From a virus: 64,000 nucleotides of DNA. Shown one piece after another: positions 6,734 through 57,751 of this stretch (position 1 is its first letter; every line of letters starts with the position of its first letter). The notes beneath the pieces were generated by a model. The model was not told where the DNA came from. It searched no databases and was given only the letters and a program-made list of their open reading frames with translations. The position numbers and the translations under genes were made by a program. Where the stretch lies: positions 797 to 64,796 of IMG/VR virus record IMGVR_UViG_3300033113_000110. One strand, 5' to 3'.

Positions 6734-6846
6734 GTGTTCTCTTACTCAAGGGGAGGGGTTGTAGCCCTCCCCTGGCAACTACCAATTGTTGAGTAGGGGA
6801 ATATGAGTAGGAGAATGTGTTTCGGCGCGTTCTCTTTTCTGTTTAA
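6734..6846 (+). ncRNA. Structured leader/attenuator, copy A (enclosing stem, hairpin, pseudoknot, terminator)
   Basis: TTCTCTTACTCAA/TTGAGTAGGGGAA, GGGGAGGG/CCCTCCCC, terminator GGAGAATGTGT-TTCG-GCGCGTTCTCT-TTTCT; homologous to 41048-41160. Confidence 0.8.
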
Positions 6847-24295: not shown

Positions 24296-25264
24296 TTAGA
24301 TGGTTGTGGTAAGGGAGGCCATGAGTTTTGGAACATCGCGCATCATGTTCATCCGGGTTTGCACAGTTTCTTGTCTACTTGCTACCGAGGATAGTGAATG
24401 TGCAACATCGAGTGCGTTTTCTACTGGATCGGAGCCGGGAACATCAACTTGAGGTAAGACACTGACACGGGTTGTCCTTCTGTCCCTTTCGTTTGCCTCA
24501 CCGATATTTGGGTAGCCGTCCCAACCGGATTTCATGATATGGTAGGATCTTGCCGCGGTACGTTTTCCCCATGTTCTTGTTAGGACTTCATCGACCCAAA
24601 TTTCGAGAGATATGCCATCGAGTTGATCGATGGGTACTCCGACTGATACTTTCTTTTCTCTCTATTGCCTGTAGATTTCTCGCTCTGAAAGTGTTTCTTG
24701 GATATGTTCTTCCAACTGTTCAGAGAGGAATTCGGGTGTTAGAGATGCTGTGTGTCTTCGGTTCATTCGTTTGCCTCGGTCGAGTTGTGTCATACCGTTC
24801 GCGCAGACTAGTCGATACCATCCAGCTTTAAAACCGAAAGTCATGCTTCCGTCAACGGAGTTGAATAGGGAAAGTTCAAGGTTCATGATCTTCCCGTCGC
24901 CGGGGTCAAACGTGAATTGTGGGAACCGAATCCTTAGCCACATTCGCTCGCCGAGATTTGTTTGGGTGAGCTCGCATGCTGCGTTATGATGGGAATATCC
25001 CATAGATGCTAAGGTTTCAAGCGTTACGTCGATAGCAGTTTGGTGCTGGATGAGTGAATAAGTTTTTGATACTGTTGCCACTGGGATGCCGTTGGTTTCG
25101 TTTACGATGGCATCGAGATGTGGGTTGGCGATGTGTGGTGGAAAGCCCGCGGGGTTTGTGAACGGTTCTCGACTGAATTTAGGGAGTATTGAGGAATTGA
25201 TGTCCTGGTAGTTGATTTTGGTTTCTTCAACGGGACGACCTGTCCAAGTTTGTTCGTTAGACAT
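24296..25264 (-). pseudogene. DUF932-family gene with a single in-frame TAG at 24662-24664
   Basis: VATVSKTYSLIQH, LFNSVDGS, GWYRLVCANG; reading through TAG continues in frame (EIWVDEVLTRTWGKRTAARSYHIMKSGWDG) into ORF 24296..24535. Confidence 0.8.
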
Positions 25265-41047: not shown

Positions 41048-41160
41048 GTATTCTTTTACTCAGGGGTGGGACTGGTAGTTCTACCTTAGCATCTACCAAG
41101 TGTTGAGTAAGGGAATTATGAGTAAGAGAACGTGCTTTGGCGCGTTCTCTTTTCTGTTTA
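41048..41160 (+). ncRNA. Structured leader/attenuator, copy B
   Basis: Homologue of 6734-6846 with compensatory and G-U changes; loop TGGTAG pairs with CTACCA; terminator AGAGAACGTGC-TTTG-GCGCGTTCTCT-TTTCT. Confidence 0.85.
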
Positions 41161-41173
41161 AGGAGGTTTTATT

Positions 41174-41725
41174 TTGAATGGTAATAAACGGAAGGGTCGA
41201 AAAGGGAAGAAATTTACGAAGCAAATCGCAAATCAGATTGCTCATTTTCTTCATGATGGGAAAACGGAAGACGAGATCCGTGCGGAATTAGAGCTTAATA
41301 ATAATGATTTCTGGAAGTGGACCGCGCTTGCTGTCTTTGGGTTGCCGGATACGCGGACACCTGAAGAAGAAATACTTCGGGATGCTATCTTTGATGTGAT
41401 GCTTGGTGAAACATTGCTGAAAAGGGTACTTGAAGTTTCAACTGATACAACAGAGAAGCGGATCATGAAGGTTACGACGCTTTTGAATCTTACGGGTCCC
41501 GAGGCTGCGGCTTTGGAACGGAAAGGTAATAAAAGGTTTGTCGAGGAATTTGAAGGCTCTGCTGTCAATTTGAAAGTGGAGGAAACGATTGAGACGATTC
41601 CGCCAGCTATATCGCTTTTAGAGAAACTTCTGAAATTGGCTGAAGGGAATGTCTCGGTTCAGAATGCTTTGAAACAACTGACACCGTTTAATCCTATTGA
41701 TCCTGAACTCGAGGATGAGGTGTAG
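41174..41725 (+). CDS. terS: Terminase small subunit (probable)
   Basis: N-terminal basic/HTH segment (KKFTKQIANQIAHFLHDGKTEDEIRAEL), upstream of terL; TTG start after AGGAGG. Confidence 0.6.
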   Translation: MNGNKRKGRKGKKFTKQIANQIAHFLHDGKTEDEIRAELELNNNDFWKWTALAVFGLPDTRTPEEEILRDAIFDVMLGETLLKRVLEVSTDTTEKRIMKVTTLLNLTGPEAAALERKGNKRFVEEFEGSAVNLKVEETIETIPPAISLLEKLLKLAEGNVSVQNALKQLTPFNPIDPELEDEV

Positions 41726-42383
41726 TTTTTTTTCTTTTTGCTTTTGATATTTTGCGTTTATGTTCGGCTGATTTGGGTTTTCCTTTTAGTGCTTTGGATA
41801 GTTTTTCGCGTGTTTCTTTGCTGAGTTTCTTTCCATAATTTGGTGCTTTCTCACCTTTTAAGGAATTGGATATTTTTTCGCGTTGTTCTTTGGGCATAGT
41901 TTTTCCATAGTTTGGATTGTCTTTGCCTGTGAGTTTTCCTTTTCTGTTTTTGGACATTTTTTGGATGCGTTCTTTGCTGTGTTTTCTGCCCTTTAGAGAT
42001 TGTGCTATTTTTGCTCTATGTTCGGGGCTGTGTGGACCTCGTTTTTTACCTGTATTTCCTTTGGATATGTTTTTGGAAGCTTCAGGAGAGTATTTAGTAT
42101 GTGTTTCTCCGCCAATTGTTAAGTTGTATCCATTAGGAGCGAGTGTTCTTAGCTTAGCAATATACCATTGTTCTACTGCATCTAATGCTTGAGGTGAAAT
42201 GTGAGGGTATTTGATTATTTGGACATTAAAGTTCTTTTTTCCATGTTTTTTTATGGCTTTGGCTATGTATGTTGAACCACTGTATCCAGCTAAATGATTG
42301 GCAATTCGTTTTTTTAGTTTGATACTTTGTCCAACATATTGTTTATTGTTTATACGGTTTGTTAGAATATAAATACCTCTCAT
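41694..42383 (-). CDS. Free-standing GIY-YIG homing endonuclease with NUMOD3 repeats
   Basis: GIYILTNRINNKQYVGQS...R...E; HSPEHRAKIAQSLKG, LSKETREKLSKALKG; own TATAAT and AAGGAG. Confidence 0.92.
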   Translation of the reverse strand: MRGIYILTNRINNKQYVGQSIKLKKRIANHLAGYSGSTYIAKAIKKHGKKNFNVQIIKYPHISPQALDAVEQWYIAKLRTLAPNGYNLTIGGETHTKYSPEASKNISKGNTGKKRGPHSPEHRAKIAQSLKGRKHSKERIQKMSKNRKGKLTGKDNPNYGKTMPKEQREKISNSLKGEKAPNYGKKLSKETREKLSKALKGKPKSAEHKRKISKAKRKKTTPHPRVQDQ

Positions 42384-42441
42384 TTGTAACTCCTTTTTGC
42401 TTTTATTATATCGGAAATGGGTGTTTTTGTAAAGGATTTTT

Positions 42442-56070: not shown

Positions 56071-56865
56071 TTATTCCTCTCTGTTTGTGCGGATAGGGAC
56101 GGTTTCGGGGATGGGTCTACCGCTTTCTATTTCCCACACAGTTTTGTTTTCATGCTCGATTTTTACGAGTTCTTTGTTTAGCCATAGATAGAGCTCAAGG
56201 TCGTATGGGTCGTTTGCGATTACGCCTTGGGCAAGTTGACCACTCACACGTTCTGTAAAGGTTTTTCCGTTTTTTAACGTCAGTTTGAATTCAACTCTTT
56301 CGAGGAGCCGGAACGGTTCGAGTGTGAATGTTGTTGGCTCTACTATTTTACCACAATCGAAAGATTTCATAAATGCTTGGGCATCTTTACAGAGTTTGGC
56401 TAAGCGGAAACCGCCGGGTCTCGGTGCGAGGTGGACACTACAGATCATTTCATCGTACTGGGTATCTCCAGTTTGGCGTTTGTATGCGGTTACAATTGGT
56501 CCTCCGAGCCATCCTTTGTCGGAGGTGTCGGTGTACTTATACGAGTTAAGTTGGTAGCCGTAGCAATCTTTTCGATTTTCACGTCCAATATCGATGTCCA
56601 TTTGGGTGACGTGCAGTTCAAGGGGGTCTTCGATGAGTGATAGTAAGCCGAGGTATTGGAGAACCATTCTGCCGTCCTCGTCTTCTTCGTTATATCTTTC
56701 TGTGCCTGTCCAGGATTTATAGTGGGACGGTAGTTCTTTGATTCGCTCGTCGGATAAGATAATACCGCCGTGTCCGGCAGTGGATACTGACCAGACACCT
56801 TCAGCTATTTTGTGATGAGTTTGGACTGGCCCCCAAGGAGTGGAGGTGCCTCTTTGAATTTTCAT
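56071..56865 (-). CDS. DUF7007-like protein
   Basis: TPWGPVQ...AEGVWSVSTAGHGGIILS...YNEEDED. Confidence 0.6.
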   Translation of the reverse strand: MKIQRGTSTPWGPVQTHHKIAEGVWSVSTAGHGGIILSDERIKELPSHYKSWTGTERYNEEDEDGRMVLQYLGLLSLIEDPLELHVTQMDIDIGRENRKDCYGYQLNSYKYTDTSDKGWLGGPIVTAYKRQTGDTQYDEMICSVHLAPRPGGFRLAKLCKDAQAFMKSFDCGKIVEPTTFTLEPFRLLERVEFKLTLKNGKTFTERVSGQLAQGVIANDPYDLELYLWLNKELVKIEHENKTVWEIESGRPIPETVPIRTNREE

Positions 56866-56874
56866 TTTTTCTCC

Positions 56875-56986
56875 TTGTTTTAATAGAAAATTTGTGATAT
56901 AATAATGTTCTCACTCTGGTGGGGCTTTGGCGAGCCTCACCGTCTACGCCAATAGGGAGTGAGAATCTTTTCTGAGTGAGGATACC
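56875..56986 (+). ncRNA. Promoter plus pseudoknotted leader, copy C, upstream of the second GIY-YIG gene
   Basis: TTGTTT-17-TATAAT with TGn; GTTCTCACTCT/GGAGTGAGAAT, GGTGGGGCT/AGCCTCACC, loop TTGGCG pairs with CGCCAA; a second GAGTGAGGA overlaps the SD. Confidence 0.8.
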
Positions 56987-57751
56987 ATGAAACAAAAAGG
57001 AATTTATATTTTTACTTTCCCTAATGGGAAGCAATATGTTGGTAAATCTGTTGATATAAAGAGACGGATTCAGCGGCATTTTAGATGTGAAGATGGTCAA
57101 GTTGTTAGTGACGCTATCATGAAATATGGGAAAGAGAATGTAAAAATTGATGTGATTCTTTATCCAGGTATTTTAAGTGTAGCTTTGTGTGCTATTGAAG
57201 AATGGAAGATTAGACAGATTGGGAGCAAATCTCCTAATGGGTATAATCTTACCAGTGGTGGTGATGGTTTTGATTCTAATTTTGCACGTGATCTTGCTCT
57301 TGATCGGTTAAGTAATGGAACGCATCATTTTCTTACTTTTGAAAATGAGGTTAAACGTAGAAAAGCAATTGATGAAGTGAATAGTCGTAAATTGATGGAT
57401 GGAACGCATCCTTTTTTAGGGGGGAAACTTGCTGGTGAAAGTAGTCGTCAGCGTGTAAAGGATGGAACTCATCATTTTTTAGGTGGTGATCTTCAACGAA
57501 AAGTAAATGCTCAACGTGTGAAAGATGGAACTCATAACTTTTTTGATCCCCAGGTTGGTGTTAGAGGGCGTTATATGCAGCGCATGAAGCGGAAGCAGCA
57601 GCGTGGTGATTTTTATCGTATTTATGCTGTGCTTCTTACTTCAAAAGCTGTTTTTAATAGGTATTGTCGTAGACAACTTGAGCGTGAAGGTTTTTTTGAT
57701 AAGCAAATACCTGATACTTCAGAATCTAAGCAATTAGAACTTTGGGATTAA
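56987..57751 (+). CDS. GIY-YIG homing endonuclease, antisense to its neighbours, with four (D/N)GTH(H/P/N)F repeats
   Basis: GIYIFTFPNGKQYVGKS...R...E; SPNGYNLTSGG. Confidence 0.9.
   Translation: MKQKGIYIFTFPNGKQYVGKSVDIKRRIQRHFRCEDGQVVSDAIMKYGKENVKIDVILYPGILSVALCAIEEWKIRQIGSKSPNGYNLTSGGDGFDSNFARDLALDRLSNGTHHFLTFENEVKRRKAIDEVNSRKLMDGTHPFLGGKLAGESSRQRVKDGTHHFLGGDLQRKVNAQRVKDGTHNFFDPQVGVRGRYMQRMKRKQQRGDFYRIYAVLLTSKAVFNRYCRRQLEREGFFDKQIPDTSESKQLELWD

Follow-up and report, generated by a model that had tools for sequence, protein, structure and literature searches.

In the window (the whole 64,000-nt stretch of viral DNA that was analysed), positions 56987-57751 of the plus strand encode a free-standing protein of 254 aa with a GIY-YIG domain (Pfam score, 29.2 bits; cut-off, 22.6). 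When this protein was compared with its family, Y7, Y17, G19, E71 and N87 were invariant and R27 was nearly so. By its domain and its intact catalytic positions, the product is a GIY-YIG homing endonuclease, of which cleavage and homing activities are putative. Both flanking genes are located on the minus strand (56071-56865, encoding a DUF7007 protein, and 57748-58344). The 121-nt stretch 5' of the endonuclease gene carries a promoter and all elements of the leader that is the subject of this analysis, hereafter copy C. Note that endonuclease cassettes (56866-57751, and also L008 and L125-L132) are often opposed to both neighbour genes; transcription of the opposite-strand operon would yield antisense RNA spanning the entire cassette, through which control might be exerted in addition.

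An extended -10 element was found at 56895-56903 (+), consisting of a perfect -10 hexamer (56898-56903) preceded by TG (56895-96); a -35-like hexamer (56875-56880, +; 3/6 matches), which is below the criteria of the promoter scan, lies 17 nt before the -10 hexamer. A -10 hexamer with no more than one mismatch was present at an equal distance ahead of the fold in 19 of 19 related leaders. The promoter scan of 56910-56986 detected no promoter-like site, the sole one being 5' of the whole fold. The transcript of copy C is predicted to start, probably, at 56909 ± 2.

Copy C (56908-56986, +) begins with the 5' strand of an enclosing helix (56908-56916, core 56910-56916), which is located at the predicted transcript start, six bases after the -10 hexamer, and would serve as an anti-Shine-Dalgarno (anti-SD) strand; in the relatives, the enclosing helix begins 5-11 nt past the -10 hexamer (5-8 nt in 17/19). 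It is followed by the G-rich 9-bp hairpin P2 (56918-26 with 56933-41), the loop of which (56927-32) is the 5' arm of a pseudoknot formed by 6 Watson-Crick pairs with the 3' arm at 56947-56952 (corrected position). The helix can be closed by either of two strands: copy 1 (56957-56965), the putative decoy, the pairing of which with 56908-16 leaves the SD unpaired by the 5' strand, and copy 2 (56974-56982), which contains the SD (56978-56982) and the pairing of which with 56908-16 would occlude the ribosome-binding site. A preliminary description of this DNA had placed the SD of the GIY-YIG gene within the duplicate strand, and this can be read directly from the sequence; the SD sits 4 nt 5' of the start codon at 56987. 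The two copies differ at one base (A at 56964 versus G at 56981), and the complementarity to 56908-56916 amounts to 10 pairs for copy 1 and 9 pairs for copy 2, with one wobble each. The spacer between the copies (56966-56973, 8 nt) is U-rich in copy C only; together with the long stem it resembles a terminator tail, a reading that was rejected because the spacers of the relatives are not U-rich.

For 56898-57000, a folding energy of -36.1 kcal/mol (z = -3.5) was predicted, with the SD-bearing copy as the partner of the 5' strand in the minimum-energy form. A second complementary site of this length arose in only one of 2000 dinucleotide shuffles of the downstream part, and in none of them within 30 nt of the first. 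Neither MAFFT nor model-guided alignments kept the enclosing helix in register across lineages because the linker lengths differ between lineages; therefore, both closing pairings were tested by shuffles sequence by sequence. Among ten representative leaders, with copy C and its close relative L123 taken separately, the second site was matched in 0-22 of 2000 shuffles for eight, so that copy C and seven of the nine others are beyond chance. In the two weak cases the copies nearly abut, an arrangement that is poorly handled by the non-overlap rule used.

The copy C endonuclease has 652 relatives in a large protein collection, several of them from genome bins of Candidatus Poribacteria. The upstream DNA was compared for 21 other genes of the subfamily from Poribacteria bins and sponge or marine metagenome contigs, and the same leader design was present ahead of 20 of them: a near-consensus promoter, the 5' strand, a G-rich hairpin, a closing strand and its tandem second copy. 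The pseudoknot from the loop to the downstream segment is usual among the related leaders, some of which have an extra hairpin inside the loop. The exception, L124, is an endonuclease gene within an operon and has no leader. By their 5' strands, the endonuclease leaders form nine lineages that are unrelated in sequence, each of which has two 3' copies that both match its 5' strand. In eight of them, the end of copy 2 is 4-10 nt 5' of the start codon; the largest lineage has copy 2 at 18-21 nt upstream of the start, clear of the SD. The closest relative, L123, whose protein is 45% identical, has the enclosing helix as in copy C, with compensatory changes in the hairpin and the pseudoknot. Nucleotide similarity between copy C and L123 extends from 56892, just before the -10 hexamer, to 57134, inside the gene, and the flanks are unrelated; therefore, the promoter, the leader and the endonuclease gene move as one cassette, as judged from these sequence comparisons. 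Whether the leader travels with the endonuclease had been raised as a check in the preliminary description, and the 20 of 21 subfamily genes that carry it, together with the end of the similarity to L123 at the flanks, answer it in the affirmative. A search for empty sites in viral contigs by means of the two flanking proteins found no relatives, a search of viral contigs for the DNA pattern of copy C gave no match, and protein-alignment scans of genome and metagenome collections found nothing. A tRNA gene (L136:1272-1345) was observed approximately 150 nt upstream of another cassette of leader and GIY-YIG gene.

Membership of the fold in a wider family was assessed with a covariance model, R2, built from four foreign endonuclease leaders only (L123, L107, L008 and L097). 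When R2 was run over the window, unfiltered and on both strands, the three best matches were copy A (6737-6846; 36.5 bits), copy C (34.9 bits, E = 2.5e-6) and copy B (41051-41160; 20.4 bits), the next match having 11.6 bits; copies A and B are leaders of the same phage. Another model, R1, is circular, as its input was copies A, B and C, and was not used as evidence. A weak R1 match at 24678-24729 (+; 14.6 bits, E = 0.26) has an enclosing helix without the G-rich hairpin and is probably not a member. The alignment of the class with a hairpin in the loop was too lineage-bound for a useful third model, and X1 and X2 were placed in this class by reading, not by a model. The order of the elements is common to copies A, B and C (5' strand, G-rich hairpin, pseudoknot between the loop and a downstream segment, closing strand and duplicated closing strand); the duplicate strand overlaps the 5' half of an intrinsic terminator in copies A and B and carries the SD in copy C. 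A BLAST search for repeats of copy C within the window found none; copy C resembles copies A and B in architecture and fold, not in primary sequence.

A fourth copy of the class without the inner hairpin is present in this phage outside the window (G000:C1:66495-66555, the same as L140:116-176). It is the best R2 match (45 bits), and the SD inside its second closing strand is that of a gene for a protein of 201 aa (L140:198-803) with a weak GIY-YIG signature. In Poribacteria genomes, R2 detected leaders ahead of TnpB-like genes (OrfB_IS605), another GIY-YIG gene and a gene for a membrane protein of 62 aa; in all of these, and in the fourth phage copy, copy 2 ends 6-10 nt before the start.

In a plain MAFFT alignment of ten leaders, 89.9% of the positions expected to pair in the hairpin and the pseudoknot were paired, versus 43-60% when the partners were slid; 13 of these 16 pairs change on both sides, and none of 500 shuffles reached these values. 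For P2 alone, 95.5% were paired across the ten leaders and seven of the nine pairs change on both sides. The pseudoknot arms also vary within a large, near-identical lineage, where several compensating versions of them were seen. Copy C agrees with the family in its spacing as well, the partner segment of the pseudoknot being located 4-5 nt downstream of the hairpin and the helix beginning 5-8 nt after a near-consensus -10 hexamer. Copy C has the 5' strand at the predicted transcript start, the hairpin and pseudoknot, the tandem duplicate and a high score with an independently built model; by comparison of sequences, its leader is a real, conserved, folded RNA.

Rfam models, searched at both gathering and permissive thresholds against the window and 13 related loci, gave nothing relevant, the best matches being at chance level, and a literature search found no paper describing this leader family. 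A survey of 2017 reportedly listed a Poribacteria RNA motif; the leader family may be the same motif, though no Rfam model matches it. The new points here are that the leader belongs to a mobile endonuclease cassette, that this phage has a fourth copy and that there is evidence against a classical riboswitch (see below); it is also new that the SD-bearing duplicate is, by sequence comparison, a common platform across many independent lineages and types of gene.

The other GIY-YIG gene of the window (41694-42383, minus), which had been said to have no such leader, indeed has a short, unstructured one, without the fold, together with its own consensus promoter and a strong SD, and the covariance-model search of the window gave no match at this gene. 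Its product is 45% identical to the copy C endonuclease over the N-terminal domain and is a more distant relative. This gene with its leader (41694-42441, minus) is located antisense between the genes for the small and large terminase subunits.

The energies of the two pairing states were predicted with a model that ignores the pseudoknot. State a denotes the 5' strand paired with copy 1, and state b the 5' strand paired with copy 2. In the predicted ensembles of copy C, the difference between the two states was at most 0.7 kcal/mol for transcript starts from 56907 to 56911. When the RNA was cut at the start codon, state b was favoured by 2.4 kcal/mol, and the probability that the ribosome-binding window is unpaired was 0.57 in state a versus 0.10 in state b. 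For starts at 56910 or later, only three bases of the SD are paired in state b. In a series of growing transcripts, copy 1 was paired once it had emerged and up to 56978, the balance tipped to copy 2 at 56981, and the states were roughly even for most of the longer RNAs. When the coding sequence is taken into account, the freed SD is paired by the energy model with the wobble-rich segment 57007-57016, so that state a may not be fully open, and translation could be damped in this state as well. For the largest endonuclease lineage, no difference in SD accessibility between the states is predicted. Because this lineage keeps the duplicate at 18-21 nt without a predicted effect on the SD, the duplicate strand must have a role besides covering the SD. 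Whether copy 1 is a crippled SD, with copy 2 superior in every case, was also assessed; the result was mixed, and copy 2 was not the better one throughout.

For copy A, the state with copy 1 was predicted at -50.2 kcal/mol alongside a fully formed terminator and the state with copy 2 at -41.9 kcal/mol, pairing with copy 2 cutting the pairing of the terminator from 1.0 to 0.38. The same conformational choice would have opposite effects on expression, pairing with copy 2 raising it in copies A and B and lowering it in copy C. The R2 scores and the predicted pairings agree in this respect with the earlier proposal of one fold that is joined to terminator (A and B) and ribosome-binding-site (C) platforms of opposite logic.

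The following mechanism is proposed for copy C. The RNA would begin with a strand of 7-9 nt that is able to pair with either of two tandem, near-identical strands. Pairing with copy 1 (56957-65) would close the pseudoknotted domain and leave the SD unpaired by the 5' strand, and pairing with copy 2 (56974-82) would bury the SD, so that initiation should be blocked. The transcript's own 5' end would thus be the anti-SD, and copy 1 would be a decoy competing with the true site. Since the states are predicted to be close in energy and copy 1 would be transcribed first, the leader is most likely a two-state translational throttle, and we consider it rather probable that copy C limits the level of a potentially harmful nuclease, or the time for which it is made, in this way. 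Candidates for what shifts the balance are the order of folding, ions or temperature, and a protein recognising the fold. The two-state translational platform is well supported by comparison, and control of translation is inferred from it; where the transcript starts, how ribosome binding is affected and whether there is regulation are likewise deduced from the sequence.

The closest documented parallel in function is the group of hairpins that sequester the ribosome-binding site of endonuclease genes in T4 (I-TevI, I-TevII, I-TevIII and segB) and of mobE in Aeh1 (PMC2988022). As in these, the gene behind copy C encodes a phage endonuclease and has an SD that a stable helix can sequester (state b), which would limit translation. 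In copy C, unlike T4, the SD would be covered by the 5' end of the very same transcript, an alternative partner is available in the form of a tandem decoy strand, and the fold belongs to a conserved family that is also found ahead of non-endonuclease genes. A control of the T4 type, in which only read-through transcripts are silenced by the hairpin, an open message coming from a second promoter located inside the fold, has in its favour the documented restraint of both intron-encoded and free-standing endonucleases of T4 (PMC2988022). However, in T4 a late promoter within the hairpin lifts the block, whereas the single promoter of copy C precedes the whole fold and 56910-56986 contains none, and with both neighbour genes on the opposite strand there is no plus-strand read-through transcript to silence; we therefore regard this explanation as very improbable for copy C. 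It is harder still to credit that the similarity arose by chance, or that it is a DNA-level feature of the cassette without a role in RNA, which the shuffle tests, the covariation and the recurrence with unrelated sequences ahead of several gene families contradict.

Translational riboswitches with pseudoknot aptamers, such as preQ1 and SAM-II, have strongly conserved nucleotides in the ligand pocket and control genes tied to the ligand. Like them, copy C has a compact pseudoknot domain by the SD, the accessibility of which would be set by the helix that forms. The preliminary description had called the element riboswitch-like; of this, the mutually exclusive pairings stand, and the sensing of a ligand does not. 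A true sensor, in which the domain would bind a small molecule, an ion or a protein that locks the pairing with copy 1 (so that the endonuclease is turned on and copies A and B terminate), is suggested by the joining of a single domain to two kinds of mutually exclusive platforms, by the conservation of the fold with covariation, by states as nearly balanced as would be expected of a switch, and by the occurrence of the family many times in one genome. However, the ten aligned leaders have only one invariant column, which is inside a helix, and their junction sequences vary; the pseudoknot is absent in two lineages (L007 and L090), which have a plain hairpin instead and keep both closing copies; the genes downstream (endonucleases, TnpB-like genes, a small membrane protein and phage late operons) have no common metabolic theme; and no Rfam model matches even at permissive thresholds. 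A metabolite aptamer is argued against because there is no conserved unpaired nucleotide that could line a pocket, because lineages without the pseudoknot exist and because no metabolic link is seen downstream. Thus, a metabolite-sensing riboswitch is not supported by these sequences, and sensing of any kind seems unlikely to us. In its widest form, the leader family would be a sensor serving mobile genes both in Poribacteria and in their phages, with one signal on the pseudoknotted domain flipping late-operon terminators and nuclease translation in opposite directions; we give this only a low probability, although, if true, it would amount to a single RNA-level master switch for the mobilome. 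The leader may instead be a kinetic or thermodynamic device, may be recognised by a protein through its shape, or may use the pairing of its 5' end for stability. The last option, taken by itself, says that the 5'-terminal bases are always paired (with copy 1 while a ribosome is bound and otherwise with copy 2), which would protect the mRNA from 5'-end-dependent decay with no control of the translation yield. It accords with a helix that, in almost every leader, starts where the transcript is predicted to start, and with the retention of the duplicate both where the SD is not covered (the 18-21 nt lineage) and in the variants without the pseudoknot; however, it leaves unexplained why copy 2 lies on the SD in all but one of the nine endonuclease lineages and in every other R2 match that has a gene directly downstream, and why it overlaps the terminator stem in copies A and B, and we consider it doubtful as the sole function.

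The two-state throttle, which we prefer, also resembles type I toxin mRNAs, in which alternative RNA pairings set the translation of a harmful protein: the timP toxin mRNA has a ligand-free structural switch that depends on a pseudoknot within the mRNA's 5' untranslated region (PMC13000454), and aapA3 has metastable SD-sequestering hairpins (PMC6733600). Unlike these, copy C has no antisense antitoxin that we could see and no sequence relation to them. The tandem repeat of decoy and SD and the anchoring at the transcript start are features of copy C that do not appear in the published abstracts on timP and aapA3.

Homing endonucleases and TnpB-type nucleases are selfish genes that need to be expressed without killing their carrier. 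To our knowledge, little is known about the restraint of such nucleases outside T4. The leader family is a compact module of promoter and leader that is inherited with the nuclease gene, the helices of which have been rebuilt in many lineages and the output of which would be translational or transcriptional. If the two-state reading is true, it would be a natural, portable expression throttle built on a decoy repeat of the ribosome site, and a clean system for strand-exchange switching between identical competitors. The leader can also serve in practice as a marker of mobile cassettes in metagenomes of sponge symbionts.

Two further observations were made. The five bases directly after the SD (56982-56986) are nearly unchanged and in the same place in most platforms of the SD type; similar bases precede unrelated genes (endonucleases and TnpB-like genes), and no partner or role was found for them. 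Most of the GIY-YIG profile matches of each genome were on the contigs G001:C310, G002:C1, G003:C1, G004:C178 and G005:C1 (96-145 kb, from Poribacteria bins), which may have come from phages or plasmids and been binned along with the host.
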